A stretch of DNA of 32,000 nt from Candidatus Nanosynbacter lyticus (GCF_030253515.1 NZ_CP124549.1:30001-62000); one strand, 5' to 3'; counted from the stretch's first letter, positions 3,537-23,112 are shown. The notes: generated from the letters alone by a model not told the origin. A program made the numbers and translations.

Positions 3537-5693
3537 ATGCGGCTACTATTGGTAACCAGAGGGATTCCCGGCTCTGGTAAGTCGACGTTTCTCGCGGAGC
3601 AGGGGCTTGATACCTATACGTTGTCGCCGGACGCGATACGGTTGATGCTGGCGTCGCCGCAGTTGACGCCTGATGGACAAACGACTATGCCGTCGCGTCA
3701 AGACGCAATGGTGTGGCGGCTTCTACACGAGATGCTGGAGCAGCGGATGACGCGGGGTGAGACGACGGTGGTTGATGCAACGCACACGACGCCAAATTAT
3801 TTCAAGACGTATGGCGAGCTGTGTCGGAAATATCGCTATCGGCTGGTGGTGATTGATTTTGCTGATGTGCCGCTGGCGGTGTGTCAAGAGCGTAATCGAG
3901 AGCGGCCGAGTCATAAGGTGGTGCCGAGTAGCGTCCTTGAGCGTATGCATCGGCGGCTGCAGCAGAGTTCACTGCCAAAATGGGTGACGGTGGTACGGAC
4001 GGCTGAGGAAGTGAATCAACTGCTTACTAATCAGCCAGAGAACGTTGATAGGTATCGGGCGGTTCATCACATCGGCGATGTGCAGGGGTGTTTTGCGCCG
4101 CTGAAGGAATATTTCGAGCGGCATCCGCTTCGGGATGATGAACTGTATATTTTTGTCGGCGACCTATTAGATCGCGGTGCGGAGAATGATGCGGTGATGC
4201 GATTTGTTTGTGACGAGTTACTTGACCGACCAAACGTGCGGTTTGTGGAGGGCAACCACGAGCTATATCTCTGGCAGTGGGCGACTGATCAGCCAGTTAC
4301 GGCGCGGGTATTTAGTGAGCAAACTCAGCCACAGCTGGAGGCGGCGGGCATCGATAAGCGCAAGGTAGCGCGGCTGCTGCGGCGGATGGATCAATATATT
4401 TTGTATCAGTTTCGAGGGCAAACAGTTTTGGTGACGCATGGTGGGCTCAGTACGCTGCCGGAGCAGTTACCATTGGTGGCGACCAGCCAGCTGGTCCATG
4501 GCGTGGGGGCGTATGATGAGGTTGGGGTGGTGGACGATGCATTTATGGCGCAGACTGATGACGCGACGTTTCAGATTCACGGACATCGCAACAGGCAAAA
4601 TTACCCCACGTGCTACAACGAACGTTGCTACAATTTGGAGGGAAGGGTTGAGTTTGGCGGCGAGCTGCGAACAGTGCGGCTGGACGAGAACGGCATGACG
4701 CCAATCACTATTCAAAACCAACGAGCAGCAGCGCGGCTATATCCAGAGCACGCGGCGTTCCTAAGCCAGCTACGGCAGAATCGCTACATTCGTGAGTCGA
4801 TCCTGCCGGGTGATATCAGCTCGTTTAATTTCAAGCCCGAGGCATTTTATCGCCAGGCATGGACGACGCAAACGATGCGGGCGCGCGGACTGTTTCTCAA
4901 TACGCTGACGAACGAGATTGTGATTCGGGCCTACGATAAGTTTTTTAACATTGGCGAGCGGCGCGATACTGAACTAGCGGCGCTGGAGCAGACGATGGTC
5001 TTTCCGGTGCGGGCGTGGGTGAAGGAGAATGGCTTTTTAGGATTGGTCGGGTATGATTCGGCGGCGGGCGGGCTGGTGATCGCATCAAAGTCGACGACCG
5101 AGGGTGACTATGCGGCGGCCTTTCGGCAAGAATTTTTGGAGCAATTTCGAGACAAACTGCCATACGTCACTGATTATCTGCGCAGTCATAATGCGTGCCT
5201 GTTGTTTGAGGTGGTGTTGCCGCGATTTGATCCGCATATTATCGCCTATGAGTCGGATCAGCTGGTGCTGCTCGATATCGTCAAGCGGCAGGTTGCATAC
5301 GGGGCGGTCGACCGGCAGGAGCGGGAGCGATTTGCGCGCGAGATCGGGACGAACAGCAAGCGTCTGGCGGCGGAGTTTTCATCATGGGCAGAGTTTATGA
5401 CGTGGTTTGGCCAGCTTCACGGCATGGCGTATCGGTGGCGGGGCGAGTGGATTGAGGGTTTTGTAATTGAAGATTCTGGTGGCCATCAGGTTAAGGTCAA
5501 GCTTGATTATTATACCTTTTGGCGGCAGATGCGGACGGCACTGGCGGCGCTGCAGGCTGGTCGGCAGCCATCAACGAGGCCCGACTGCCCTGACCCGGCG
5601 TTGGCAGCGCGGGTAATTGCATATATGCGGCAGTTGCCCGCCGAGGAATTAGCGCGGATGGACATTATCGCGCTGCGGCGACGGTTTGAGTAG
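3537..5693 (+). CDS. Three-domain polynucleotide kinase / metallophosphatase / ATP-dependent RNA-ligase-like protein (bacterial Pnkp-type RNA repair enzyme)
   Basis: Residues 1-165 form a P-loop kinase (GIPGSGKST). Residues ~175-360 form a calcineurin-like phosphoesterase (GDVQG, GDLLDRG, GNHE, VTHGG, HGH). Residues ~440-718 form a nucleotidyltransferase with VKENGF (KxNG motif I), EGFVIED (motif IV) and VKVKL (motif V). The start lies 3 nt after the murE stop. Confidence 0.7.
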   Translation: MRLLLVTRGIPGSGKSTFLAEQGLDTYTLSPDAIRLMLASPQLTPDGQTTMPSRQDAMVWRLLHEMLEQRMTRGETTVVDATHTTPNYFKTYGELCRKYRYRLVVIDFADVPLAVCQERNRERPSHKVVPSSVLERMHRRLQQSSLPKWVTVVRTAEEVNQLLTNQPENVDRYRAVHHIGDVQGCFAPLKEYFERHPLRDDELYIFVGDLLDRGAENDAVMRFVCDELLDRPNVRFVEGNHELYLWQWATDQPVTARVFSEQTQPQLEAAGIDKRKVARLLRRMDQYILYQFRGQTVLVTHGGLSTLPEQLPLVATSQLVHGVGAYDEVGVVDDAFMAQTDDATFQIHGHRNRQNYPTCYNERCYNLEGRVEFGGELRTVRLDENGMTPITIQNQRAAARLYPEHAAFLSQLRQNRYIRESILPGDISSFNFKPEAFYRQAWTTQTMRARGLFLNTLTNEIVIRAYDKFFNIGERRDTELAALEQTMVFPVRAWVKENGFLGLVGYDSAAGGLVIASKSTTEGDYAAAFRQEFLEQFRDKLPYVTDYLRSHNACLLFEVVLPRFDPHIIAYESDQLVLLDIVKRQVAYGAVDRQERERFAREIGTNSKRLAAEFSSWAEFMTWFGQLHGMAYRWRGEWIEGFVIEDSGGHQVKVKLDYYTFWRQMRTALAALQAGRQPSTRPDCPDPALAARVIAYMRQLPAEELARMDIIALRRRFE

Positions 5694-5709
5694 GCGAGAG
5701 GTTGGTTTC

Positions 5710-5738
5710 TTGTTCTACGCAGGGCGGTCTGGTACAAT
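5710..5738 (+). promoter_or_regulatory. Sigma-70-like promoter for the SGNH-hydrolase locus
   Basis: TTGTTC (5710-5715), a 17-nt spacer, then TACAAT (5733-5738). A GGAGGGGG Shine-Dalgarno sequence lies just before the ATG at 5769. Confidence 0.45.
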
Positions 5739-5768
5739 TTTGACATAAGCATAACGGAGGGGGCGCTT

Positions 5769-7295
5769 ATGTGGAAACTTATTATTAGTGTTATTGGGGC
5801 TACGTTAGCGGTGTGCATCGCGGTGCCGGCGACGGCTGGAGCGACTTCTGGGTATGATGATATCATCAACAAGGTTTCAACGAAAACATTGATCCATCAC
5901 ATCGATAATTATTCGGGTAAAACCTGCGGAAGTCCTGATGACGATTACGCGAAGAAGTGGCTGTTTGCCTTTAAGCAAAAGAGATATTATTCAGGTGACC
6001 CCAGAGACCACCAGGCGGCGGTAGAAAGTTTAGAACGCGCTATGTCGTCGCCAAAGGGTGCGTACGCGGTTGTTTATGAGCAGAATAATAAACATAACGA
6101 CACGTCAAACCCATCGTTCATAAAAGTTTTTTGGACAGAGGACGGTAAGGATGATTATACGTATCGTTTTTATAAAAATCATCAAATAAGCGGGATTTAT
6201 CTTACGAGGAAGGAGGGTAGTCAGTCGAAACTTTATGTGGCTACCGTTGCCAGCCCTAAGTTGATTTTAGGAGGTGGTAATGGTAGTAATTGTGACCCTG
6301 AATACTTGTGGGGATATAAACATTCGCAGGCTTTTGTATCTGATCTGAATATATCTGTAGGATCAAATAAAAAACTCTTCACGTCTACGTTTTCTGTTGA
6401 CTATCCGAGCGGCTATGCAGGCCCCAAGTTTCCGGACAATCGCTCAGCGATCGGATGGTGGCCAGACTCGTCTCAATATGATGATTTTACAGACAAAATA
6501 ACAGTAAAAAAATTAATAAATTACATAAATTATCACAAGAAATTTTGTGCACCATCAGACTATTCTAACAGTTGGTTTACAGCGTTTAAGTATCCCAATA
6601 TTCCTGACAATCATAAGTATCATAAAAGTTATATGGCAAGTCTTGAACGGGCGATGGCGACGGGAGCGTATGCTGTTGCTTATGAACAAACGACGGTTAA
6701 TGGTAAAACAGTAAACCCCTATTTCATAACGGTATTTTGGTCAGAAAATAGCAATGACTTTCATATTAAGTTTTACGGTGATGCTCCGTACAGAGTTGCT
6801 ACCATTACACATAAGTGGGGCAGCAGTGCAAAGTTGTACGGTATGATCGCAGGTAGCACTGGACCGCTCTGGGGACGTGGCGGTTGTGAAGTTGAGTTTT
6901 TGCAGGGAAATTATCTAAATGGCTATATACCTACTGCTCGGTTTAACGAGTCGTATATACCGTTGAGCGGTGGCAATAATATGAAAATCTTCACCTCAAC
7001 CTTTGACGTCGAATATCCAGACGGCTATAAGGGTAAGCCGATTCCTGGCGATCGACGCAATATCAAGTATCTCGCCCTTGGCGACTCCTTCTCCAGCGGC
7101 GAGGGTGATACTGACAAAAATCCGGCGACTGACCGAAAGTATTATCGCCAGTGGACGGATGTGAAAGAAGATAAGGCGAAGGGTGCACCGAAGGAAAAGT
7201 GTCATATCAGTACGCGTTCGTATCCGTACAAGCTGGCGAATTGGATGGGGCTGGGTAAGCGGCCCGTCGGCGGCGTGGGCGTCGGTTGCGTGTAG
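5769..7295 (+). CDS. Secreted protein with signal peptide, two tandem ~195-aa unknown domains and the start of an SGNH/GDSL hydrolase domain (N-terminal part of a frameshifted gene)
   Basis: N-terminal signal peptide is MWKLIISVIGATLAVCIAVPATAGA. Internal repeats cover aa 29-225 and aa 237-430. GDSL block I (LALGDSFSSGEG, GDS at 7080-7088) is present, and the frame ends 70 codons later. Confidence 0.7.
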   Translation: MWKLIISVIGATLAVCIAVPATAGATSGYDDIINKVSTKTLIHHIDNYSGKTCGSPDDDYAKKWLFAFKQKRYYSGDPRDHQAAVESLERAMSSPKGAYAVVYEQNNKHNDTSNPSFIKVFWTEDGKDDYTYRFYKNHQISGIYLTRKEGSQSKLYVATVASPKLILGGGNGSNCDPEYLWGYKHSQAFVSDLNISVGSNKKLFTSTFSVDYPSGYAGPKFPDNRSAIGWWPDSSQYDDFTDKITVKKLINYINYHKKFCAPSDYSNSWFTAFKYPNIPDNHKYHKSYMASLERAMATGAYAVAYEQTTVNGKTVNPYFITVFWSENSNDFHIKFYGDAPYRVATITHKWGSSAKLYGMIAGSTGPLWGRGGCEVEFLQGNYLNGYIPTARFNESYIPLSGGNNMKIFTSTFDVEYPDGYKGKPIPGDRRNIKYLALGDSFSSGEGDTDKNPATDRKYYRQWTDVKEDKAKGAPKEKCHISTRSYPYKLANWMGLGKRPVGGVGVGCV

Positions 7296-8982
7296 TGGGG
7301 CGACGGTGTATGACATGAATTGGGACAACTCGGGTGGCTATGAAGGGCAGGACAGCCCGCTCGGGCGGCTGCATGGTTATGACAACAAAGGAGTGTTGCA
7401 GAAGATGGCGCTCAACGAGATGATCCCGGGGCGCGTCAAGCAAATCGAGTTCGTAAAGAAATACCAACCAAAGGTGATCACGCTGACGGCGGGCGGGAAT
7501 GATGTGGGGTTTGGAAATAAATTAAAAGCATGCGTGCCCTTCCCTAGTACCTGCGTGTATGCAAAAACTGAAGAGCGACGAAAGCTAAAGAACGAAATTC
7601 TTGATCAATTTGAGCGATTAAAGTCATTCTATGAGGAACTTAAAGCCGCAACGGACAACAAAGCAAAAATATATGTACTTGGCTATCCGCAATTTATAAA
7701 TGGAGCTCCTGATGCTCCGTGTGGAGGCAGGGGCCTTCTTTATCTTGACGCCAGAGAGCGCGAGATGATAACAAATTCAGTTTCTTATCTTAATGGTGTG
7801 ATCCGCCAAGCCTCCAAAGCGGCTGGGGTAAAATACATAGATGTAGAAAATGCCTTTGGCAATCATTGGCTATGTGGCGATAAACCTACTCACGTTAACC
7901 CGTTGCTGTTGGTTGAGGAGGTTGCTAGTAGGCAACCAGACTTCCACCTCCCTCCCGTTGAGCGTCAAGAAAGCTTTCATCCAAACGCTAAAGGTCACGC
8001 CGATATTGCTCGTGCTTTTAAGAAAGAATTAGGCGGTGTTAATCCTGTGGATTATAAAATCTGTAAAAATGACGCGACGACTTGTCCTGACAACTCTGCG
8101 ACAAGGGATAATATACCAACACCTCCTTATTTTAACGTTACTAATGAGCAGGAAGACATAAAGTTTACTTATTATAAACTATCCAATGGGACAGCGACAA
8201 AAGTTCAAGAAAAGCACATAGAGATCAAAACATCCAGGCGCCCGTATAAGCCATGGAAAAAGGTATACGTAAAGATTTACTCTGAGCCAAGAGATTTGGG
8301 CGAGATTGAGGCTGATGAGAATGGTGAAATTAATGGATCTGTGGCACTGCCTGAGGATTTGCCCGCTGGATATCACACGCTGGTGGTGTCTGGTGAAGCA
8401 CCAGATGGCAAGAAGCAAGAGCTATACCAAACCATTCTCGTCAAAGGTCCAAACCCCGAGGATATCGACGAAAATGATACGCCAGACAAACTCCAACCCT
8501 GCGGGGCTTTCGCTCAAGCCGCTAATAAAGACGAAGACCTTGACGGCATCGACGACGCCTGCGACCCTGAGATCACCGACCCCATCCTCTACACTGCTCG
8601 CAACGGCAAGTCGTTGCTTGGCGAAGATGAGGATCGGATTTATCTCTTTCGCAATACGCGAGCAGCTAACTTGACTGGTATCACGAACGATTACGTTGAC
8701 AAGTCAAAAAACCAGAATAACGCTGATGCGCTGGTCGGACATACTTTAAGCGAAGAGACACGCGGACTTGCATTCGATAAACTGGTCGTTATGAAAGAAG
8801 CTGACGGTGACATAAAAAAAGGAACGCCGATTATCCTCGCCAAAGACGTAAACGAAAAATGCTACGCCCTAAAACCAGAGGATTACCTATCACCAGCACT
8901 AAAGCCCGGATCAAAAAAGTATAAGCTACGAGGATTAACAAAACTAAATACACTACCGAAGGGGGTTGGTTGTGAAGAATAA
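7183..8982 (+). CDS. SGNH/GDSL hydrolase blocks II-V plus Ig-like and Ca-binding C-terminal regions (C-terminal part of the frameshifted gene)
   Basis: Contains ACSGATVYD (block II), TLTAGGNDVGF (block III) and ESFHPNAKGH (block V, catalytic His). A DxDxDGxxDxxD thrombospondin-type-3-like motif lies at 8530-8565. This frame is +1 relative to 5769..7295. The real coding part probably begins near 7257; the first in-frame ATG is at 7315. Confidence 0.7.
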   Translation: MHRRKSVISVRVRIRTSWRIGWGWVSGPSAAWASVACSGATVYDMNWDNSGGYEGQDSPLGRLHGYDNKGVLQKMALNEMIPGRVKQIEFVKKYQPKVITLTAGGNDVGFGNKLKACVPFPSTCVYAKTEERRKLKNEILDQFERLKSFYEELKAATDNKAKIYVLGYPQFINGAPDAPCGGRGLLYLDAREREMITNSVSYLNGVIRQASKAAGVKYIDVENAFGNHWLCGDKPTHVNPLLLVEEVASRQPDFHLPPVERQESFHPNAKGHADIARAFKKELGGVNPVDYKICKNDATTCPDNSATRDNIPTPPYFNVTNEQEDIKFTYYKLSNGTATKVQEKHIEIKTSRRPYKPWKKVYVKIYSEPRDLGEIEADENGEINGSVALPEDLPAGYHTLVVSGEAPDGKKQELYQTILVKGPNPEDIDENDTPDKLQPCGAFAQAANKDEDLDGIDDACDPEITDPILYTARNGKSLLGEDEDRIYLFRNTRAANLTGITNDYVDKSKNQNNADALVGHTLSEETRGLAFDKLVVMKEADGDIKKGTPIILAKDVNEKCYALKPEDYLSPALKPGSKKYKLRGLTKLNTLPKGVGCEE

Positions 8983-8988
8983 GAAGGT
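8862..8988 (+). repeat. Direct repeat copy 1 (3' end of the hydrolase gene plus start of small gene A1)
   Basis: Near-identical to 10345..10471. I saw 3 mismatches over about 127 nt, all synonymous in the hydrolase frame. Confidence 0.85.
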
Positions 8989-9265
8989 AATCAAGTGCTC
9001 AACTGTACTATATACAGGCGTAGTGTCGGTCTTGGGAATATGTCAGTTCCTGGGTGTGCCAAACCTTGATATGATCTCAATACAAGATAGGGTAATGCTA
9101 GGTGCAATTATATGGTGGCTCGGCATATTTGGTGTTGCTATGAATGCAGTTATTATAATGAAAATTCAGGAATTAAGAGCGCTGGCCACTATTTTATTAC
9201 TATTATGTGCTGCATCTGGTTTAATCGGTGGTTTTCATTACTATTTGGCGACTACCTGGGCTTGA
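8972..9265 (+). CDS. Small 3-TM membrane protein, family A (A1)
   Basis: The GTG start sits 6 nt after GAAGGGGG and overlaps the hydrolase stop (TGTGAAGAATAA). The protein begins MKNKKVIK and has three hydrophobic segments, a GVPNLD motif and GGFHYYLA. The ORF track starts it at 8966. Confidence 0.6.
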   Translation: MKNKKVIKCSTVLYTGVVSVLGICQFLGVPNLDMISIQDRVMLGAIIWWLGIFGVAMNAVIIMKIQELRALATILLLLCAASGLIGGFHYYLATTWA

Positions 9266-9315
9266 GGTTAACTTGTGAAGTATAACATAATTAACACAAA
9301 AATAAGGGGTGAATT

Positions 9316-9600
9316 GTGAAGAATAAGAAAATAATTGTGGGATTATCAATTATTGTCCCAATGTTAATATTGTTGCTAGAATACTACATAATCGGTCCGC
9401 TATTGGCCGATGGTATCAGTATATTTGTTGCACAATGCTCGTTGCTAGCTTTGAGTGCTATATTTATGATAGCGGGCATTGTCATTTTAGTGAGAGCTTC
9501 TGGGGGTTATAAATTTTGTTGTGTGCCCAGTATCGTCGCCAGCTTATTACTCGTTTTTGGATATTTTTTGTCCGAGGCTGTAAAAGAGATACGGTTCTAG
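9316..9600 (+). CDS. Small 3-TM membrane protein, family B (B1)
   Basis: GTG start preceded by AAGGGG. The protein begins MKNKKIIV and has three hydrophobic segments and the motif R-x3-YKF-C-C. Confidence 0.55.
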   Translation: MKNKKIIVGLSIIVPMLILLLEYYIIGPLLADGISIFVAQCSLLALSAIFMIAGIVILVRASGGYKFCCVPSIVASLLLVFGYFLSEAVKEIRF

Positions 9601-9643
9601 TGAGCTTGGAAAGTAAAATGTGTTATGTTCAACAAGGTGGGCT

Positions 9644-9949
9644 GTGAAGAAAAATAAGATTGTAAAATACGCCACGATAACTTATACATGTCTATTGGCG
9701 GTAATGGCATTTTGCCTATTCGCGGGAATACCGAATCTAGACATGAATCCGAGGCAAGTTAACTCACTGTTAGGGATCATTCTTGTGTGGGCAAGTGTGA
9801 TCGGTATAGCTATAAACCTGCTCACGGTAATTTTTATAAAAAGTCTACGCTCCATTGCCGTAGTGCTGCTCATCGTATGCACATTTGCACTGGCAGAAGG
9901 ATGTTTTCATTATTTTTGGTTTTCACAGCCATTCGCAGGGGGACGGTGA
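9644..9949 (+). CDS. Small 3-TM membrane protein, family A (A2)
   Basis: The GTG at 9644 gives MKKNKIVKY, analogous to A1. GIPNLDM and CFHYF motifs are shared with A1. The ORF track starts it at 9620. Confidence 0.55.
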   Translation: MKKNKIVKYATITYTCLLAVMAFCLFAGIPNLDMNPRQVNSLLGIILVWASVIGIAINLLTVIFIKSLRSIAVVLLIVCTFALAEGCFHYFWFSQPFAGGR

Positions 9950-9972
9950 AGTAGCGCATGGCTAATCATCAT

Positions 9973-10029
9973 ATGAAGATTAATAAAACTAAACAAGCTA
10001 CCGAAGGGGGTGGTTGTGAAAAAGAATAA
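9973..10029 (+). repeat. Degenerate remnant of the hydrolase 3' terminus in front of B2
   Basis: It reads MKINKTKQATEGGGCEKE*, compared with the hydrolase C-terminus LTKLNTLPKGVGCEE*. The nucleotide string aaaactaaacaagctaccgaagggggtggttgtgaa resembles aaaactaaatacactaccgaagggggttggttgtgaa at 8940-8977. Confidence 0.55.
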
Positions 10030-10309
10030 ACAAACGTGTCAAAACGTAATCACTATAATTATAGGGATAATTCCCATCCCTACGCTCGTAATCCATCAGA
10101 TAATAGCTGAAAAATTCATATTTCCATATTACTCCGAAGCTCATTTCAATTATCTACTTATAGGAATTGGAGCGTTTGTTATTGGGGGATCTATCCTAGT
10201 TTGTTGTCGAGGCAGGATAAAATTATGGTGTATTCCTGGGATGCTTGTTGGGGTTATTGCGGTATTAGCTTACATCATAGCTATTGGGCTGAGGGAATTT
10301 CAGTTCTAA
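10016..10309 (+). CDS. Small 3-TM membrane protein, family B (B2)
   Basis: The GTG start lies inside the TGTGAA junction, 5 nt after GAAGGGGG. The protein begins MKKNKQT and has the motif CRGRIKLWC, like B1 and B3. The ORF track starts it at 10010. Confidence 0.55.
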   Translation: MKKNKQTCQNVITIIIGIIPIPTLVIHQIIAEKFIFPYYSEAHFNYLLIGIGAFVIGGSILVCCRGRIKLWCIPGMLVGVIAVLAYIIAIGLREFQF

Positions 10310-10344
10310 GCCGGGGTTAACGATACTGAAGTTATCGTAGGCTA

Positions 10345-10471
10345 CTACGCCCTAAAACCAGAAGATTACCTATCGCCAGCACTAAAACCCGGATCAAAAA
10401 AGTATAAGCTACGAGGATTAACAAAACTAAATACACTACCGAAGGGGGTTGGTTGTGAAGAATAAGAAGGT
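10345..10471 (+). repeat. Direct repeat copy 2: orphan hydrolase 3' end (last 39 codons plus stop) fused to the start of A3
   Basis: It encodes YALKPEDYLSPALKPGSKKYKLRGLTKLNTLPKGVGCEE*, identical in amino acids to the hydrolase C-terminus. No start codon or upstream hydrolase body is present. Confidence 0.85.
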
Positions 10472-10754
10472 TATAAAGCACTCAATCATGCTGTATACTG
10501 GTATACTGTCGGTTTTAGGATTGTGCCAGTTTCTCGGCATACCAAACCTTGATACAGCTTCAAGACACGACAGGATGTTGCTGGGAGCGACTATATAGTG
10601 GTTGGGTGTGGCCGGGGTTATTATAAATGTGATTATTGCAATAAGGCTTAGAACATTGAGGACCTTGGCTATTGTCCTGCTAATGTTGTGTATCGTGTTT
10701 GGCTTGGTCGGTGGTTTTCATTATTATCTAGCAGTTAACTGGAAATGGGGTTAA
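10455..10754 (+). pseudogene. Family A small membrane protein paralog (A3) with an in-frame TAG
   Basis: It translates as MKNKKVIKHSIMLYTGILSVLGLCQFLGIPNLD...GATI*WLGVAG...GGFHYYLAVNWKWG*. The TAG at 10596-10598 sits where A1 has a TGG (Trp) codon. Confidence 0.7.
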
Positions 10755-10887
10755 TCCGTGAAGAATAGTCAATAGGTACGTCAAAGCGCCAAGGATACAA
10801 ACGGGGGTCCATTACCATTTGATGGCTCATTGCTCATAGCAATAGGTTGATTAACTAACGCAGCCGATTTATCATGAGGGGTAGGTT

Positions 10888-11187
10888 ATGAAAGATGATG
10901 TAGCGACGACGGACAAGCCATACTTAAGCGATACGATAGTAATCTTGCTAGTGGTCGCACCGATAGCTTTGTGCGTGCTGCTCTTTGTCGTGGCGAGGTG
11001 GGATACGTGGTGGATTCGTGAATATCATGTTACTGAGATAGCAGCAATGGCGCTGCCGATGCTATTGTCGGCGGCGGGAGTGTGGATGGTAGTGTGGCTG
11101 AGGGGTGTATATAAACTCTGTGCGTTTAGTAGCCTTGCGGTAGCGGCATTGTTCTGGCTGGCGTTTCTTTATAAATTATCGCAATGA
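10888..11187 (+). CDS. Small membrane protein, family B-like (B3)
   Basis: ATG start after GAGGGGTAGG. It has three hydrophobic segments and LRGVYKLC, which matches the family B motif. It is GC-richer than the other array members. Confidence 0.5.
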   Translation: MKDDVATTDKPYLSDTIVILLVVAPIALCVLLFVVARWDTWWIREYHVTEIAAMALPMLLSAAGVWMVVWLRGVYKLCAFSSLAVAALFWLAFLYKLSQ

Positions 11188-11703
11188 TTTTTTACGACTT
11201 TCGCGGTACTTGGTGCGGCGATTAATAGTCATAAGAATTGTTCCGCAGATGAAAAGTGGCGGCGCGCAGAATAGATATATAAACTCTCCCAGCCCATCAG
11301 CCAGAAAGCAGTTACCTATGGAAAATCCGCTACCGCAGCGTCCAGGAATGCCCCACCCGCCGATCGTCATGTCGAGGAGCAGTATCAGTATTGCGAGGTA
11401 AAACAGGATGCCTGTTATAACAAGCGGCCATCGATTGCGCAGGTTCTGACAGCGGGCGGTGATTGACCGGTCCGTTATCTCTATCATCAGCAAGGTGATA
11501 AGCATGGCCACAATGAACCACATTGAGTCGTGCAGATAGTAATCATAATAATAGTCGGGCGGACCAAATTGGTCAGAGTTGAGCTTGTGTAGGTGGTCAT
11601 TATGGGCAGTTGCAAGCACAAAAACGAGGATCGTCAGGCCGTAAATAAGCCAACGCACGATGCGGGTGGCAATTGATTTTTTTGATGGAGCATTTTCAGT
11701 CAT
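11176..11703 (-). CDS. Multi-pass membrane protein, unknown function
   Basis: A 175-aa ORF with about 4 hydrophobic segments. Its ATG overlaps the murF stop (TGATG), so the two are translationally coupled. Its 3' end overlaps B3 convergently by 12 nt. Confidence 0.5.
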   Translation of the reverse strand: MTENAPSKKSIATRIVRWLIYGLTILVFVLATAHNDHLHKLNSDQFGPPDYYYDYYLHDSMWFIVAMLITLLMIEITDRSITARCQNLRNRWPLVITGILFYLAILILLLDMTIGGWGIPGRCGSGFSIGNCFLADGLGEFIYLFCAPPLFICGTILMTINRRTKYRESRKKSLR

Positions 11704-12989
11704 CAATGGTCGCTTTCAAAAAACTGCCGTTTCTTTTCGAGCCACGCGTCTGATTGGCGGACGAGCTTTTGGCGATCGGCGGGGTTTTTGAGGAGTGGCT
11801 TGATGGCTTCCTCGAGGTAGATGCCACCCTGGGAACCTTTGAATAGGAAGGTGGTGTCTTTATTGGCTAGGCGAGCGAGGAACTCAGTGGCATCGGTGGC
11901 TTTAGTAAACGAAGTGACGGTGCAACCGTTTTGGCGGGCGGCTGGAGCGAGGAATCGCTCGGCCAGGTGGCCAACGGTGATGACGTGGTCAAGCTGTTTT
12001 GGGTCACACAGCGCGCCGATGGCAGCGTGTTCGTCGGCTGCGGTCTCGCCCAGCTCGTTCATGTCGCCAAGGACGGCGATTTTGGTTTTGGCGGGTAGCC
12101 GGTAAAGCGTCGTCAGGGCGGATTTTACAGCGAGGGGACTGGAATTATACGAATCGTCGATGATGGTTGCACCGTTGATACCGGGCAAGATATTCATGCG
12201 GCCGCTGACTGGCGTGAAATTCTCGAGCATGGTCATCACACATTCAATGTCAAGTCCAAGCTCTAACGCCACTGCCGCTGCGCCGCCGGCAACGCGGAGT
12301 TGATGCACGCCGACAACAGGAATGATGAATGGACGTGAGGTTTGGTCAGCGTGGATGAGCTGGCACTGAAAGCCCTTGCCGCTAGTAAATTTACCGATAG
12401 CCATCTGGTAGTCGGCGCCCGGCTCGGTGCCGTAGGAAATGATTTGGCCGCAATCGGCGAAATCCACGAACTCGGGGCGAATGTCGTCGCGGTTGTAGAT
12501 CACTTTTTCGCTATATTCAGCGAGGGCAAATTCCTCGCGGGCAACAGTTTCTAATGAGCCGAAAAACTCCATGTGCTCGGGTGCGATGGCGGTGACGATG
12601 GTGACGTCAGGGCGAATATAGCGGCCGAACGCGGTCATTTCGCCGGGGTGATCAATGCCAAACTCTTGGACGACAACATCAATGTCATGCTGGCGGCGGG
12701 CGGCCTGGCGGGCTCGGCCCAAGACCGACAACCAATTCCATACCGAGCGGGGGTTCTGCGGTGAATCGACACCGAGAATTTCCAGCGGCGCGCTAAACTC
12801 GGCGTTGAAGTTGCCGCGGTTGGTGCGGACTTTATAACTGGAGTTTAGGACGCTGACGAGAGTTGATTTGGTAGTGGTTTTGCCGACGCTGCCGACGACG
12901 GCAACGAGCTTGATGTGCGGATTATGCAGGAAGAACGCGGTGACAGAGCGGGCGAGAATGCGCGAGATGAGGGTTTTGAAGAGTCTCAT
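11703..12989 (-). CDS. murF: UDP-MurNAc-tripeptide:D-Ala-D-Ala ligase (MurF-type Mur ligase)
   Basis: Contains the VVGSVGKTTTKS P-loop, IDDSYNSSP and GDMNELG motifs. I prefer the ATG at 12989 (MRLFKT...), which has TGCTATACT 6 nt upstream. The ORF track extends the frame to 13067. Confidence 0.8.
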   Translation of the reverse strand: MRLFKTLISRILARSVTAFFLHNPHIKLVAVVGSVGKTTTKSTLVSVLNSSYKVRTNRGNFNAEFSAPLEILGVDSPQNPRSVWNWLSVLGRARQAARRQHDIDVVVQEFGIDHPGEMTAFGRYIRPDVTIVTAIAPEHMEFFGSLETVAREEFALAEYSEKVIYNRDDIRPEFVDFADCGQIISYGTEPGADYQMAIGKFTSGKGFQCQLIHADQTSRPFIIPVVGVHQLRVAGGAAAVALELGLDIECVMTMLENFTPVSGRMNILPGINGATIIDDSYNSSPLAVKSALTTLYRLPAKTKIAVLGDMNELGETAADEHAAIGALCDPKQLDHVITVGHLAERFLAPAARQNGCTVTSFTKATDATEFLARLANKDTTFLFKGSQGGIYLEEAIKPLLKNPADRQKLVRQSDAWLEKKRQFFESDH

Positions 12990-13332: not shown

Positions 13333-13989
13333 GTGGGGCGAACCCATAAATATGAGAGCGACCAAACTCGTCAATTAGCGCTTATGGCAGCGATACCAAA
13401 TTGGCTGTTAGCGAAGCGACAGCTTGACAAACATGGCAAAACAATGGAACGCCCTGAGAAAAAGAAATTACTTGGTCCAATAATAGCATTTAACCATGCC
13501 CTTCGTAAGATAATCGACGCGGAACAATGTTCAGGGATGCAGCAGTTGATTAATTTTGTTAATGACATTGTTTTAATGATGAGTGAGAGCGAGGAGGTCG
13601 CTCGGTATGCAGAAAATGCAGCACAAATAACCCTCGTTGGTATGAGACAGGAAATTGCGGCAGAGAGCGTGCTAAGTTCAATGCAGGAAGTGCATGGCAT
13701 CAGGGGTGCAAACGACGAGGAAGAACTGGACGGTATAGATATTGTCGTGAATTATAACGGTATTGAGGTTGGGATTGATATTAAATCAAGCCAAACTGCC
13801 GCTGATAAAGCAAATAGAGTCGCTAGAGAACATAGAGATACTAAGTACATGGCAGTGTGGTCTGGGTTTACCGGTTGTGATTTTGGTAGCAATCTCATTT
13901 TGGAGGATTGGCAGCTTAGAAATCAACAAGGCTATTATCGCTCCGTTATGGATGTAGTGATTCAGCAAGTTGGACATAATGTTGCATGA
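13333..13989 (+). CDS. Hypothetical protein with a possible PD-(D/E)xK nuclease-like motif
   Basis: A 218-aa ORF. The pattern E(x)nLDGIDIVV-x9-VGIDIKSS resembles the D...(D/E)xK core of the restriction-endonuclease fold. The GTG start has only a weak Shine-Dalgarno sequence, and the first in-frame ATG is at 13384. Confidence 0.4.
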   Translation: MGRTHKYESDQTRQLALMAAIPNWLLAKRQLDKHGKTMERPEKKKLLGPIIAFNHALRKIIDAEQCSGMQQLINFVNDIVLMMSESEEVARYAENAAQITLVGMRQEIAAESVLSSMQEVHGIRGANDEEELDGIDIVVNYNGIEVGIDIKSSQTAADKANRVAREHRDTKYMAVWSGFTGCDFGSNLILEDWQLRNQQGYYRSVMDVVIQQVGHNVA

Positions 13990-14017
13990 TATATCAGAAT
14001 AGTTTATAATACTAAAG

Positions 14018-14437
14018 ATGCCTATACGTTCATATGATATTATCACCCCTGACGATTTAAACTCGGAAGCATTTCTGAGACAACAATATATAGAAGCGCT
14101 CAAGCGTAGCACTGAGATACCTGGCAAGGTAGGCGCGGTTGCACTTCGGTTGGTTGTGACTCCTAATTCTGATGGTAATGAGTTGGCGACACGGCGACAC
14201 AAACAGAACGGTAGTGCTGAGACAATTATGCTAAATGCAACCATGGTGCTTGATGCAACGGGTTTTGATGAGTCCTCTATTCGAGCGACTGGAAATGTTA
14301 CGGTTGGGACAGAGAAAGCAGTTTGTGGCCCGGGGAGGCTTGAAAAAGATAAGAATGATCAATTAAAACTGCATGTTAATGAAAAGCTGGCGAATCCGGA
14401 GGAACCAGGTGAGGCGGCTATGAAGTTCAATTTCTAG
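14018..14437 (+). CDS. Hypothetical protein
   Basis: A 139-aa ORF with no motif I recognise. Its stop codon lies inside the CIRCE left arm. Confidence 0.4.
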   Translation: MPIRSYDIITPDDLNSEAFLRQQYIEALKRSTEIPGKVGAVALRLVVTPNSDGNELATRRHKQNGSAETIMLNATMVLDATGFDESSIRATGNVTVGTEKAVCGPGRLEKDKNDQLKLHVNEKLANPEEPGEAAMKFNF

Positions 14438-19448: not shown

Positions 19449-20611
19449 GACTTTTTCGTAGCTTTCCGTTCTTTTTTGACTGGTTTCTTGGTTGATTTGG
19501 CGGCATCGGTTTTTGCGTCGTCGGCTTTATCGGACTTAGGGGCGGGTTTCTTTTCGGTCGACGGAGCAGCGGTTTTTGCGGCGTCAGAATCTATTGATTT
19601 TTTACTATGATCGCTGTCAGCTTTAACAGTCTTTGTGGTTGCTTTGGCTGAAGCAGCGCCAAGCGGCCGCTTTGGTGGGAGATCATCCGGCGATTTCACT
19701 GGATCAGCTGGCTTGTTGGGAGTAGCAGATGGGGCTGCCTTCTCGGTCGTTGGTTTTTCAGGAGTGGTTTTGGTTGGCTCGGCTTTCTCTACTTTCTCGC
19801 CCTTTTCCTCTGACTCGTCTTTTGTGTCTTTGGCGGCTACTGTGTGCGTCGGCGTTGAACTCACCGGAGTTGCTGGTTGGTCATCGCCGCCCAGCTTTTG
19901 CTTAAAGATCTTCTTGATGTGGTGCGTATCGGTATCAATGCGCCCATCGAGCATAGAAATCACCCGGCTGGCATAGGACAGCAGCTCTGGATTGTGCGTC
20001 ACCATGATAATCGTATTGCCTCGGCGGTGAATGTCGGACAGCTCCTCCATGATGATGTGGCTGGACTTGGAATCGAGGTTGCCGGTCGGCTCGTCGGCCA
20101 GGATGATTGATGGGCTGTTGACCAGTGCTCGGGCGATTGCCACGCGCTGAACCTGACCGCCAGATAGCTGATGCGGCAGATAATACTCGCGCTCGCCCAG
20201 ATGGAAGTTGCGCAAGATTCGGCTGGCTTCCTGGAGGCGCTTGGTCTTGCTGATGCCTTTATAGGTGAGCGGCAGGGCAACATTATCGATCACCGTCAGG
20301 CGTGGGATGAGATTGAAATGTTGAAAAATAAAGCCAATATCGCGCGAACGAATCGTGGCGTGATGGGTTGCCGTCAGATCCTCGACTGGTTTATTGTCAA
20401 GGTAATACTCGCCCTCTGACGGGTGGTCGAGCAGCCCGAGGATGTTAAGCAGGGTCGTCTTGCCGCAGCCGGACGGGCCGACGATGGCGATAAATTCACC
20501 CTTTTTGACCTCGAGATTGACATTGTCCAGCGCCACCTGCTCGGCGTCACCAAAGCCAAATCGTTTGGTTACATTAGTAAGTTTAATTCGCGTTGAAGGA
20601 TCGTTCATCAT
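19445..20611 (-). CDS. ABC transporter ATP-binding protein (MacB/LolD-like) with a roughly 160-aa Lys/Pro/Ala/Thr-rich C-terminal tail
   Basis: Contains Walker A GPSGCGKTT, the signature LSGGQVQR and Walker B IILADEPT. I prefer the ATG at 20611 (MMNDPST...), which has TGTCTATAAT 7 nt upstream. The ORF track starts at a TTG at 20629. Confidence 0.85.
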   Translation of the reverse strand: MMNDPSTRIKLTNVTKRFGFGDAEQVALDNVNLEVKKGEFIAIVGPSGCGKTTLLNILGLLDHPSEGEYYLDNKPVEDLTATHHATIRSRDIGFIFQHFNLIPRLTVIDNVALPLTYKGISKTKRLQEASRILRNFHLGEREYYLPHQLSGGQVQRVAIARALVNSPSIILADEPTGNLDSKSSHIIMEELSDIHRRGNTIIMVTHNPELLSYASRVISMLDGRIDTDTHHIKKIFKQKLGGDDQPATPVSSTPTHTVAAKDTKDESEEKGEKVEKAEPTKTTPEKPTTEKAAPSATPNKPADPVKSPDDLPPKRPLGAASAKATTKTVKADSDHSKKSIDSDAAKTAAPSTEKKPAPKSDKADDAKTDAAKSTKKPVKKERKATKKS

Positions 20612-20664
20612 TGCCTTTATTATAGACAAAAAGCCGCTCCGGTTGCAACCGCTAGCGGACTTTC

Positions 20665-20673
20665 TGTTATAAT
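20665..20673 (+). promoter_or_regulatory. Extended -10 promoter for tRNA-Ser
   Basis: TGTTATAAT ends 9 nt upstream of the first base of the tRNA. Confidence 0.5.
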
Positions 20674-20682
20674 ATGCATCAC

Positions 20683-20774
20683 GGAAGGATGCAGGAGTGG
20701 TTGAACTGGCACGCCTGGAAAGTGTGTAGGCTCTTCACGGGGCCTCCGGGGTTCGAATCCCCGTCCTTCCGCCA
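20683..20774 (+). tRNA. tRNA-Ser (anticodon GGA), with encoded CCA
   Basis: Manual fold: acceptor stem GGAAGGA/TCCTTCC; anticodon stem CACGC/GTGTG with loop CTGGAAA; a long variable arm; T-arm CGGGG-TTCGAAT-CCCCG; discriminator G followed by CCA. Confidence 0.85.
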
Positions 20775-20795
20775 AGAGATATTTGAGAGGGCATT

Positions 20796-21023
20796 ATGGA
20801 AATATACGAACATCATACAGAAAAGCGTATAGAAACAAGAGAACATTATACGTACTTAATCAATATTTTGATAGGCGCATATAATGCTGGTAAGCTACCA
20901 GAGATAAAAGATATTATTATCGAACCTGAATATGGGTATGTGGCGTCAATTAAGTATAATTCTGGAGAACACAGAGTTTTATATGGACATGATCCTGGGT
21001 TTAATTCAGGAAGCGCAGAGTAA
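20796..21023 (+). CDS. N-terminal fragment of an ATP-grasp ligase (ends at an in-frame TAA)
   Basis: A 75-aa ORF in the same frame as 21054..21869. Only the TAA at 21021-21023 separates ...GFNSGSAE from LANDKGYTKFLLRENGI. Confidence 0.5.
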   Translation: MEIYEHHTEKRIETREHYTYLINILIGAYNAGKLPEIKDIIIEPEYGYVASIKYNSGEHRVLYGHDPGFNSGSAE

Positions 21024-21053
21024 TTAGCTAATGATAAGGGGTATACAAAGTTT

Positions 21054-21869
21054 TTGCTTAGAGAAAATGGCATAGATTGTGCAAGAGGTTCTGAATTTCT
21101 TTTACCTTGGTGGGCGGATATGCTGCGTCAATCAGACCGTCAGCAGTTTAATCACTCTATGCGTGACACAAAAGAAGCCCTTGGCTATATTGATGAATCT
21201 TTAGGATTTCCTGTCTATATTAAACCTAGCAGAGGTTCTCAAGGAGTTGGTGTAGCTAGAGTTGAAACCGCTGAAGAACTTGATAAGCTTCTTAACCAGT
21301 GTAACGAGGAGCGCGTTAAAGTAGCTGTCATTGAAGAAGAATTAAAAATGCCTGACTATCGCATATTGGTTTTTGATGATGAGGTAGTTAATGCCTATGA
21401 GAGACGACCTTTTTCTGTTAAGGGTGATGGAGTAAGTAATTTAGAACAGCTAATTGATTTGAAACATAAGACCTTGGTAGATTCTGGTAGAGATATACAT
21501 TTTGAAAGGCAGCTACCTATAATTATGAATAAATTGGGGAAAATGGGTCTGTCTATGACCGATATTATACCGAAAGGCACAGATGTTCGTTTGATGGATA
21601 TATCAAATTTATCAGCAGGAGGAACGCCAGTTGATGTCGGTGAAGTTATGCATCAACGGTGGCGAGATCTAGCTGTCAGGGTGGCAAGAATCTTTGATTT
21701 ACGAATATGTGGGGTTGATTTGGCGTGTAAGGATATTACGCAATCAGATAGCGAATACGGCGTAATAGAGGTAAACGCAACGCCTGGTGCCAAACAATTT
21801 ATGGCAAGCGGCGTGGCTCAGCAGGAAAAGCTAGAAGATATTTTTGTTAAATTCTTCCGAACATTATAA
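21054..21869 (+). CDS. ATP-grasp ligase domain protein (cyanophycin-synthetase / RimK-like ATP-grasp), C-terminal part
   Basis: Contains DKxxTKxxLxxxGI (encoded from 21033), FPVYIKPSRGSQGVGV, DYRILVFDDEV, NLSAGG and IEVNATPG. The frame is open from 21024. Confidence 0.65.
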   Translation: MLRENGIDCARGSEFLLPWWADMLRQSDRQQFNHSMRDTKEALGYIDESLGFPVYIKPSRGSQGVGVARVETAEELDKLLNQCNEERVKVAVIEEELKMPDYRILVFDDEVVNAYERRPFSVKGDGVSNLEQLIDLKHKTLVDSGRDIHFERQLPIIMNKLGKMGLSMTDIIPKGTDVRLMDISNLSAGGTPVDVGEVMHQRWRDLAVRVARIFDLRICGVDLACKDITQSDSEYGVIEVNATPGAKQFMASGVAQQEKLEDIFVKFFRTL

Positions 21870-21873
21870 TGAT

Positions 21874-23112
21874 CTACCTTGCCGCAAATTCACTCACCAA
21901 ATAAAACGACCCGGTAACAACGACGTACGTATCGAGTTGCCGGGCCTTCTTGATAGCTTTCGCGAGAGCCTTGTCTGTATTATGTTCAATCTCGACTGCA
22001 GATTTCATGACATGGCGGATAATTTCCGGCGGCATGTTGCGGTGATTTTTGCCGTAATTGGTGCTAAATGTGGTGGCGTAGGTTAGTTGCGCCAGGTTGT
22101 CAATTATAGCAAGCGATTCTGCTATTGATGACTGCTTATTTTGCCCGAATGCTACTACGAAGATAGGCTTTTTATCCGGATATAATTTCCGCAATGAATC
22201 AATCAAAGCGCGGATTTTCTGGGGATTATGCGCAACATCAAATATGATGTTAACTCCATCAACATTGCGCTTCTCTAACCGTCCAGGAATAGTGATATGC
22301 ACGGATTTTTCCAGAACTTCTTTTGGCAGGGACGGCTTTTTATTCAGTGCCAGCTGCTTTTCGACGGCGCGGTACGCCAATGTCCAATTCCGCTGCTGAA
22401 AATCCGGCAGTATTTTCAGGAATTCGCTAGTCACTGGTGAAGTAATCGAGAATTGTGTATGCTGCTCCTCTGCACGTTGTCGAACAACCATTTCAATCTC
22501 AGAAGCTTGCCGGTTCATAACGACTGAATCGCTTTGATGGATAATGCCAGCTTTTTCTTGGGCGATTTCTGTCAGAGTATTGCCTAATAATTCCGTATGG
22601 TCTAGTCCGATATCAGTGATGACGCGTACCGTTGGCGAACGGAAAATCACGTTGGTTGTATCTAGCCGACCGCCAATCCCAACCTCAATTATGATATAAT
22701 CAACTCTCATTTCCTTAAATAGCCAAAAACTAAAAATCGTCAAAAATTCAAAATACGATAGATGCAGGTTGTGTACTATATAAAGATTGGCAAACGCTTG
22801 AAAATAATGCAAATATTCTTGTTCAGGCAGTGGCTGTCCGTTGATTAGCGAGCGCTCGGCGACGCTGGCAATATGCGGCGACACTAACATGCCGGTAGTA
22901 TAGCCAGCCCGGTTCAGTAAACTGGTAGCATAATAAGCAGTCGAACCCTTGCCGGAGGTGCCGGCGATGTGGATGGCGGGAATTTGATTTTGCGGACTGC
23001 CAAGGGTTTCCAAAATATGCGCTACATATGCCAGCCGATCATGCTTTTTGGGCGGATGAGCAATTAGCTCGTCCAAAAAATAAGTGGCGTCGCGCATTGA
23101 GGCAAATTTCAT
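21874..23112 (-). CDS. folC: Folylpolyglutamate synthase/dihydrofolate synthase family Mur-ligase (FolC-like)
   Basis: Contains the IHIAGTSGKGST P-loop and has FolC-like length and layout (412 aa). TGCTATAAT lies 10 nt upstream of the ATG. Confidence 0.75.
   Translation of the reverse strand: MKFASMRDATYFLDELIAHPPKKHDRLAYVAHILETLGSPQNQIPAIHIAGTSGKGSTAYYATSLLNRAGYTTGMLVSPHIASVAERSLINGQPLPEQEYLHYFQAFANLYIVHNLHLSYFEFLTIFSFWLFKEMRVDYIIIEVGIGGRLDTTNVIFRSPTVRVITDIGLDHTELLGNTLTEIAQEKAGIIHQSDSVVMNRQASEIEMVVRQRAEEQHTQFSITSPVTSEFLKILPDFQQRNWTLAYRAVEKQLALNKKPSLPKEVLEKSVHITIPGRLEKRNVDGVNIIFDVAHNPQKIRALIDSLRKLYPDKKPIFVVAFGQNKQSSIAESLAIIDNLAQLTYATTFSTNYGKNHRNMPPEIIRHVMKSAVEIEHNTDKALAKAIKKARQLDTYVVVTGSFYLVSEFAAR

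Follow-up and report, generated by a model that had tools for sequence, protein, structure and literature searches.

The 32,000-nucleotide (nt) stretch of Candidatus Nanosynbacter lyticus DNA analyzed here (GCF_030253515.1 NZ_CP124549.1:30001-62000; hereafter the window) carries, between positions 5769 and 11187, a gene for a large SGNH/GDSL hydrolase followed by an array of small membrane-protein genes, in the order hydrolase-A1-B1-A2-B2-(hydrolase 3' fragment)-A3(TGG>TAG)-B3. The locus is accessory and varies between strains of oral Saccharibacteria, with small transmembrane (TM) genes of several unrelated families following one conserved enzyme gene. Our favored reading, which we hold tentatively, is that the small proteins are membrane-embedded, immunity-like partners that would protect against a membrane-active esterase.

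The source genome belongs to the oral Saccharibacteria (TM7, HOT-488-like), and the closest public loci are all from Candidatus Saccharibacteria. Among these, L014, from an oral metagenome-assembled genome, is 97.5% identical across 5501-10030, and L011 (CP128407.1, "oral taxon 488 strain 106.1.1") is ~88% identical. The hydrolase gene and the array comprise the following features (aa, amino acids; CT, C-terminal domain; SD, Shine-Dalgarno sequence; TSP3, thrombospondin type 3).

5769-8982, + strand: SGNH hydrolase gene, ~1050-1070 aa when repaired, split by a frameshift
5769-5846, + strand: Sec-type signal peptide (MWKLIISVIGATLAVCIAVPATAGA), with a hydrophobic N-terminus and an AxA motif, conserved among homologs
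5847-7058, + strand: two ~200-aa N-terminal repeats of alpha + beta fold, 40% identical to each other (E 3e-37)
7059-8142, + strand: SGNH/GDSL catalytic domain (GDSFSSGEG ... ACSGAT ... GGND ... SFHPNAKGH)
7257-7258, + strand: single-base insertion (extra A: GGGTAAGCGG against GGGT-AGCGG), from alignment with L014 and L011
8143-8457, + strand: beta-sandwich-like spacer ("Ig-like"), weak matches only
8458-8979, + strand: TSP3-type Ca-binding motif and beta-rich CT ending in LPKGVGCEE, from alignments and an AlphaFold2 (AF2) model
8972-9265, + strand: A1, 97-aa 3-TM protein of family A, identical to the L014 copy
9316-9600, + strand: B1, 94-aa 3-TM protein, preceded by a junction copy at 9306-9335
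9644-9949, + strand: A2, 101-aa 3-TM protein, with a junction copy at 9634-9663
9972-10011, + strand: hydrolase 3'-end remnant of 40 nt before B2, 85% identical to 8927-8966 (repeat D3)
10016-10309, + strand: B2, 97-aa 3-TM protein
10328-10465, + strand: orphan hydrolase 3'-end fragment (last ~40 codons, ending in YALKPEDYLSPALKPGSKKYKLRGLTKLNTLPKGVGCEE and TAA; repeats D1/D3)
10455-10754, + strand: A3, family A, inactive through a TAG at 10596-10598 in place of the TGG of relatives
10888-11187, + strand: B3, 99-aa 3-TM protein with its own ATG and SD, the conserved last array gene in the clade

The GTG codons at 8972, 10016, and 10455, each 6 nt after an AGGGGG, are probably where A1, B2, and A3 start; an open reading frame (ORF) finder had placed these starts at upstream TTG or GTG codons. 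The A1 start overlaps the hydrolase stop by 11 nt, and its SD (AGGGGG, 8960-8965) lies inside the last codons of the hydrolase, so that the two genes are predicted to be translationally coupled. As the original prediction had noted, this junction (GTGAAGAATAA) recurs: it is present five times (repeat D2), with copies before B1, A2, B2, and A3. Every small gene of the window except B3 thus has a junction copy, and each would once have been coupled to a hydrolase 3' end.

Orphan 3' fragments, also among the original claims, are real, since the hydrolase 3' end is duplicated at 10328-10465, where ~120 nt of hydrolase tail precede A3. This fragment matches CT residues 136-173 at 95% identity in tblastn and shares 94% identity with the primary tails of L011, L021, and L092. 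In these 3 loci the intact A3 ortholog is the first, coupled gene, and window positions 10345-10767 (tail plus A3) are 94% identical to their primary tail and first small gene, i.e. a module that would be expressed in some strains is displaced here. Stand-alone CT ORFs of 181-184 aa are widespread and an internally deleted class of 126-128 aa is also common; we found no signal peptide in these orphan CT ORFs. We infer that repeated replacement of the 3' end, with unequal recombination in CT-coding DNA, gave rise to the array. Incoming cassettes, each a CT 3' end with its small gene, would recombine homologously within the conserved CT-coding DNA, and older cassettes would be shifted downstream, retaining their own SD and start on the same transcript. 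A scan of the + strand found no terminator-like site within the array. The cassette-locus idea is therefore upheld by the orphan fragments together with the strain-variable copy number and order described below.

Five small genes are intact in the window and A3 alone is nonsense-mutated, as its in-frame TAG confirms. Clustering and hidden Markov models (HMMs) reproduce the division into families A and B, and each small protein has the 3 hydrophobic segments ascribed to it; the common start M-K-(N/K)-(K/N)-K fails for B3, which begins MKDDV. The array ends in B across the HOT-488-like clade. The N-terminus is basic, as is the short loop between TM2 and TM3, and this pattern argues for an N-in/C-out topology in which the parts outside the cell are probably limited to one short loop and the short C-terminal tail. 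The best conserved motifs of the small families fall at this predicted outer face (GIPNLD and GGFHYY in A, WIGWD..FQF in D, HELGNLRF in E, and LFRVNR in C). An exact look-up of the window B3 protein returned no record.

Linkage of the small genes to the hydrolase was followed in both directions. In the forward test, 90 SGNH-homolog loci were sorted by whether or not the hydrolase ends in a CT. A 91-120-aa ORF with 2-4 TM segments overlaps the hydrolase stop by 7-19 nt in 32 of the 35 CT-type loci; the 3 exceptions are L037 (contig end), L036 (1 TM at the threshold used), and L030. The linkage is kept at ~30-45% hydrolase identity in environmental lineages without the N-terminal repeats (L028, L031, L034, L036, and L038), and it survives relocation, as L006/L007 and L111-115 lie between rsmA and SulP and not between murE and murF. 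In the reverse test, 20 metagenome loci were recovered with peptide patterns of family A; 19 have the hydrolase directly upstream, and the twentieth is on a cut 1.8-kb contig that still carries an array flanking gene. Among 5.8 billion proteins, the family-B profile detected no more than 33 clusters, every one made up of short proteins from Saccharibacteria, and the family-B loci examined (P0193 among them) are all in arrays. Had the A and B families proved mostly unlinked to secreted hydrolases, the original hypothesis would have failed; in fact virtually no small TM gene was encountered without the hydrolase.

A survey of copy-number variation reveals, as anticipated, that the order and number of small genes differ between strains. 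Specifically, ~60 loci yield >35 different array strings, e.g. H-CT-E (then only two partial C-like matches), H-CT-D-ct-D, H-CT-C-C-A-E-B, and H-CT-A-B-A-B-ct-C-B, with the window itself reading H-CT-A-B-A-B-ct-A*-B. The original prediction recognized 2 small-protein families; A and B both stand, but in close relatives clustering separates at least 5 named families (A, B, C, D, and E), to which distant relatives add singletons. Only D and E are linked by profile-profile comparison (probability 91%), which finds no relationship of A, B, or C to one another or to D/E. CT variant and small-gene family go together: a D gene comes after CT clusters 1/2/4 in 9 of 11 cases, and an A, C, or E gene after CT cluster 5 in 23 of 25. 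The last 32 CT residues show no covariation with the downstream family except for CEKE vs CEE, a difference that the overlapping start forces.

The ratio of nonsynonymous to synonymous substitutions (dN/dS) is 0.06-0.5 for the small genes at first and displaced positions alike (0.06-0.21 for B3), which indicates that displaced copies are still under purifying selection. Between the same strains, dS is 0.03-0.13 for A2, B1, and B2 and 0.2-0.4 for B3, and the far lower values of the former point to a recent spread of cassettes. From these patterns we infer that each small gene has a selectable function independent of the first position and turns over quickly between strains.

The hydrolase itself is encoded by 2 overlapping ORFs, 5769-7295 and 7183-8982, that make up one gene. 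Their joined product aligns with >120 intact proteins (P0001-P0120 among them) of 1024-1075 aa at 100% coverage and 46-90% identity, in agreement with the large signal-peptide protein first proposed; source annotation of these homologs is limited to "SGNH/GDSL hydrolase family protein." The extra A relative to L014 and L011, followed by a stop at 7293-7295, would make the window copy either a pseudogene or the product of a sequencing error. The enzyme is predicted to be exported by the Sec pathway, and no lipobox Cys in its signal peptide is conserved among homologs.

The SGNH/GDSL assignment holds, with matches to Pfam PF13472 (1e-11) and PF00657 (5e-7) on the second ORF half and GDSFSSGEG in the first. 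Blocks I, II, III, and V of the SGNH superfamily are present with the catalytic Ser, Gly, Asn, and His, and S438, G508, N575, and H736 are invariant in 10 homologs. The nearest solved sequences are the Streptomyces phospholipase A1 4HYQ (3e-10), the lipase 5MAL, and the esterase 1ESC, and the hydrolase is predicted to be an SGNH esterase of the Streptomyces phospholipase-A1/lipase type. It shares with these enzymes the GDS(F/Y)S, ACSGAT, GGND, and HPN blocks and Sec export, but is 3-4 times larger, with novel N-terminal repeats, a TSP3 motif, a novel C-terminal domain, and an obligatory downstream gene for a small membrane protein. The Ig-like region survives as a spacer with weak matches (MalQ_N, E 0.0018; PDB 6S5W, a surface protein, E 0.04).

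The 2 N-terminal repeats are confirmed by their mutual identity and are limited to 28 loci of an oral/mammal-associated clade. Their AF2 model has a mean local confidence (pLDDT) of 83 and a template-modeling score (pTM) of 0.78, and Foldseek against PDB gives no significant match for it, only resemblances at E~1 to LolA/LprG-type lipid binders that we do not count. The repeats are allelic in L093, L099, L105, L107, and L021, where they are 37-47% identical to those of P0001 while the SGNH domains are 60-91% and the CT domains 89-94% identical; L093 is the clearest case (42% in the repeats vs 91% and 94%). The full-length alignment of the hydrolases is visibly mosaic. Together, allelism and mosaicism suggest recombination and diversifying pressure on the N-terminal part of the enzyme, which is presumably target-binding.

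At the other end of the hydrolase, the predicted DxDxDG Ca-binding motif is borne out by a weak TSP3 match (NCBIfam MtsC, E 0.004), and the AF2 model of the CT, with residues 61-195 at pLDDT 80-95, has no significant structural match in Foldseek searches of PDB and BFVD. The CT has 4 invariant Cys and a constant ending, (L/I)PxGxxCE. An exhaustive profile search finds it in 78 cluster representatives at E<1e-30; a word-indexed search gave only short orphan ORFs, and the full-length carriers needed the exhaustive one. Most of the 150 best matches listed are to the C-terminal end of proteins of 840-1150 aa, 4 of which were checked and carry a GDSL domain. CT identity is 29-94% over the whole set and roughly 70-95% within the oral clade, with the same invariant residues throughout. 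Within that clade, the CT is among the best conserved parts of the hydrolase, and the catalytic domain is not exchanged. Overall, the proposed profile-HMM and AlphaFold/Foldseek searches identified the SGNH domain and left the noncatalytic parts without a match, as neither the N-terminal repeats, the CT, nor the small proteins match any Pfam, NCBIfam, PHROG, or PDB entry.

Environmental Saccharibacteria (L030, L034, L036-L038; P0141, P0142, P0157, P0166, P0212, and others) have 2 tandem CT units at the hydrolase C-terminus, each with the signature Ca motif and Y.ARNG..GED..IY..RN.... Weak CT-like units also end 2 secreted proteins that are not SGNH enzymes, P0335 (2306 aa) and P0332 (1410 aa), whose signal peptides suggest a high-GC organism.

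Homologs without a CT have a different ending. In about 45 of these 55, the C-terminus is one TM helix followed by a basic tail, which would make them self-anchored type-I surface enzymes; the tabulated CT-type proteins (L028, L030, L031, L034, and L036-L038) have no C-terminal TM helix. Among the self-anchored homologs, L029, L032, L033, L035, L040, L041, and L045 have 1-3 small 3-TM genes just downstream, and others (L043, L049, L070, L074, L076, L078, L079, L081, L083, L084, L086, L088, and L090) have a coupled bitopic protein of 110-196 aa. In L030 a bitopic gene (8950-9264) follows the orphan CT tail. The presence of 3-TM or bitopic genes beside self-anchored enzymes suggests that a small membrane partner is general to the enzyme family. 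The bitopic partners, which match nothing in Pfam, NCBIfam, or PHROGs, are of 2 types, one of ~112 aa (Y.KW..CG..P ... YFC.P.EAE.AGYS) and one of ~190 aa ending in DRAKAKHYPY. One contig, JAUNOS010000001.1, carries both a CT-type hydrolase with an array (L027) and a self-anchored 853-aa paralog (L072), ~20 kb apart.

As immunity-like partners, the small proteins would shield the membrane of the producer from a lipase, either its own or one displayed by neighboring Saccharibacteria on the same host. Because Saccharibacteria are generally regarded as incapable of de novo membrane-lipid synthesis, damage to the membrane would be costly to them. The nearest solved relatives of the enzyme, a phospholipase A1, a lipase, and an esterase, fit such a role, and a selectable function independent of position combined with fast turnover is the pattern of conflict or protection genes, which is why we favor protection; the same pattern is awkward for a structural anchor. 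Several points weigh against it. The enzyme is not polymorphic like the toxins of known toxin-immunity cassettes, its catalytic residues being invariant, and nearly identical CT domains pair with 3 unrelated families (A, C, and E), which makes a specific lock-and-key immunity hard to picture. The predicted exposed loop and tail are too small to occlude a 360-aa catalytic domain, and this topology was read from hydropathy and the positive-inside pattern rather than from a trained predictor. The hydrolase is broken in the window while the small genes remain, which could mean that they do not depend on it or simply that the frameshift is recent or artefactual. Finally, Southlakia epibionticum ML1, the one Saccharibacteria strain with transposon-sequencing data, lacks this hydrolase family and has only a 190-aa SGNH protein in its annotation, which suggests that the module is accessory.

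In the main rival reading, the CT would instead dock on the exposed loop or tail of a 3-TM protein, which would then act as an anchor in trans, holding the esterase on the epibiont surface in place of a TM helix. We regard this as rather unlikely, although CT-type proteins have an overlapping 3-TM gene where most non-CT homologs have a terminal helix, the coupling suggests a complex of about 1:1, the best conserved small-family motifs lie at the predicted outer face, and CT-like units end other large secreted proteins too. Self-anchored homologs likewise carry small 3-TM genes, so the small proteins are not merely anchors; moreover, unrelated families follow nearly identical CTs, copies no longer behind a full hydrolase remain under purifying selection, and an anchor gives no obvious reason for arrays or rapid turnover. 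A disulfide with the invariant C-terminal Cys was also rejected, because no outer-face Cys is conserved across the small families. An unlikely role, but one that would account for hypervariability together with retention, is one tied to the products of the enzyme or to the host, i.e. uptake or flipping of fatty acids or lysolipids, determination of strain identity or host range, or service as targets of host or phage attack, with diversification as a consequence. It would accommodate several unrelated families in one slot, including the bitopic Cys-containing family found after the L030 CT tail and beside many self-anchored homologs, and the parallel allelism of the hydrolase N-terminal repeats (37-47% identity vs 60-91% for SGNH and 89-94% for CT domains); yet the small proteins have no transporter-like feature or family match, their recognition surface is very small, and nothing links them to lipid handling. 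A classical polymorphic toxin, with the CT as an exchanged toxic or receptor-binding module and the small protein as its cognate immunity, would explain the full-length CT orphans (181-184 aa) followed by small genes and the co-segregation of CT variants with small families. We find it very unlikely, as the oral-clade CT variants are one domain at ~68% identity or more and not unrelated toxin folds, the orphan CT ORFs lack a signal peptide, and no toxin family matches. The frameshifted hydrolase and the stop codon in A3 could also mark a decaying island in which the small ORFs are nonfunctional by-products of duplication beside a pseudogene. This is scarcely credible and already contradicted: the hydrolase is intact in essentially all relatives, dN/dS is 0.06-0.5, and starts and TM architecture are kept across lineages whose hydrolases are ~30-45% identical.

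Other arrangements were considered and set aside. A programmed frameshift that would join the small ORF to the hydrolase is rejected because of the conserved SD and GTG/ATG start of each small gene; such a fusion would also leave two basic segments, the N-terminus and the TM2-TM3 loop, on the exterior of the cell. LPKGVGCEE is not a sortase (LPXTG) signal, as no helix and basic tail follow in the same frame and the helix-encoding ORF is in another. The partners, at ~95-120 aa, almost wholly membrane-embedded and without a Pfam match, do not resemble a lipase-specific foldase (Lif), with its single N-terminal TM helix and large extracytoplasmic chaperone domain, nor do they form a 2-component O-acetyltransferase of the OatA or PatA/PatB type, having 3 TM segments instead of 10-11 and no AT3 or MBOAT match. 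A holin-endolysin cassette is excluded by the hydrolase's own signal peptide, the absence of PHROG matches at E<0.03, and a context of housekeeping genes.

Polymorphic toxin systems with orphan CT-immunity cassettes, such as CdiA-CT/CdiI and Rhs, have been reviewed (PMC3482391). In architecture the locus comes closest to these systems, sharing 3'-end replacement, orphan 3' fragments with a small gene, strain variability, and the retention of displaced modules. However, the C-terminal region exchanged here is conserved and the variable element is the small membrane protein, and there is a Sec signal peptide in place of a dedicated secretion system and no VENN or PxxxxDPxGL demarcation motif. 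The likeness to toxin/immunity loci drawn in the original prediction thus holds for orphan fragments and module displacement but not for variable, unrelated C-terminal toxin domains, and for lack of the latter we do not file the locus as a polymorphic toxin system. Immunity proteins of pore-forming colicins have 3-4 TM helices, and the Staphylococcus aureus toxin TspA, a type VII secretion system substrate, has adjacent arrays of membrane immunity paralogs. The small proteins are like these in being ~100 aa with 3-4 TM helices, in lying beside the candidate effector gene, and in sometimes forming multicopy, strain-variable arrays; they differ in having no sequence relationship to them, in filling one slot with several unrelated families, and in being paired with a hydrolase and not a pore former. 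The acquired interbacterial defense (orphan immunity) islands of Bacteroidales, which PMC13622651 cites, have accumulated diverse small protective genes that spread between strains. Arrays of diverse, spreading small genes are common to both, but the Bacteroidales islands are not physically or translationally tied to one conserved enzyme gene.

Literature searches on the locus returned no paper describing it. It is conceivable, although we think it doubtful, that Patescibacteria have here their first described system of effector and immunity (or of kin/competitor discrimination), one of a new design in which the 3' end of a conserved, surface phospholipase-like enzyme gene serves as a socket for the recombination and expression of interchangeable, unrelated small membrane proteins. 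If so, epibiont strains in competition on one host cell would be told apart by their membrane cassettes and not by the toxin they make. Saccharibacteria grow attached to other bacterial cells, on which they are believed to rely for lipids, and to our knowledge only a handful of their surface or conflict systems have been worked out. The locus, among the most strain-variable spots of otherwise syntenic genomes, pairs a lipase-type exported enzyme with fast-turnover membrane proteins found nowhere else, and could explain either how these cells process foreign lipid while sparing the membrane of their own or how strains that share a host compete. The new protein families that it defines are the 2 N-terminal repeats, the CT domain, and the small families A, B, C, and D/E. 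The natural transformability of Saccharibacteria (PMC10633639) makes the locus amenable to experiment.

The remaining features of the locus lie at its 2 ends.

5710-5738, + strand: promoter-like site (-35 TTGTTC at 5710-5715, 17-nt spacer, extended -10 TGgTACAAT at 5730-5738), read directly and plausible only
just 5' of the ATG at 5769, + strand: SD GGAGGGGG of the hydrolase
11176-11706, - strand: multi-TM protein of 176 aa, convergent on the array and possibly associated

The AT-richer character claimed for the block is evident, with a GC content of 39-48% across 5.5-11 kb vs 54-59% in the flanks. The sigma-70-like promoter ascribed to it can be read at 5710-5738 but falls below the threshold of a consensus scan, and promoter-like sites are only modestly more frequent in the region than expected by chance (20 vs 12.9 +/- 3.4). 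The 176-aa ORF, marked by DMTIGxWGxPGxCGxxFxxGNCFxADGL, has 31% identity (E 4e-19) with the ORF immediately 3' of the CT-type hydrolase in the distant L030 (8338-8769 of that locus). It adjoins B3 in HOT-488-like loci, is present in 30 of 116 sources, and has no family match in Pfam, NCBIfam, or PHROGs; it may be a further component of the locus.

The flanking genes encode MurE, a Pnkp-like kinase/phosphatase, MurF, GroES/GroEL, an archaeal-type PGI/PMI, a fused TsaB-TsaD, a FemAB-like transferase, and MacB-type ABC proteins. The Pnkp-like protein (718 aa, 3537-5693; AAA_33 kinase, metallophosphatase, and RNA-ligase-like domains) lies between murE and the hydrolase; its gene is found at the hydrolase-flanking position in L001 and is absent there in L002-L005, L008, and L009, a patchiness that suggests a second variable insertion at this site. 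Further stretches of low GC (41-45%) are present in the window at 13333-14437, where 2 ORFs (218 and 139 aa) without a Pfam match lie just 5' of groES/groEL, and at 20500-23100, which carries an ATP-grasp (RimK-like) gene and a third gene of the Mur-ligase family.

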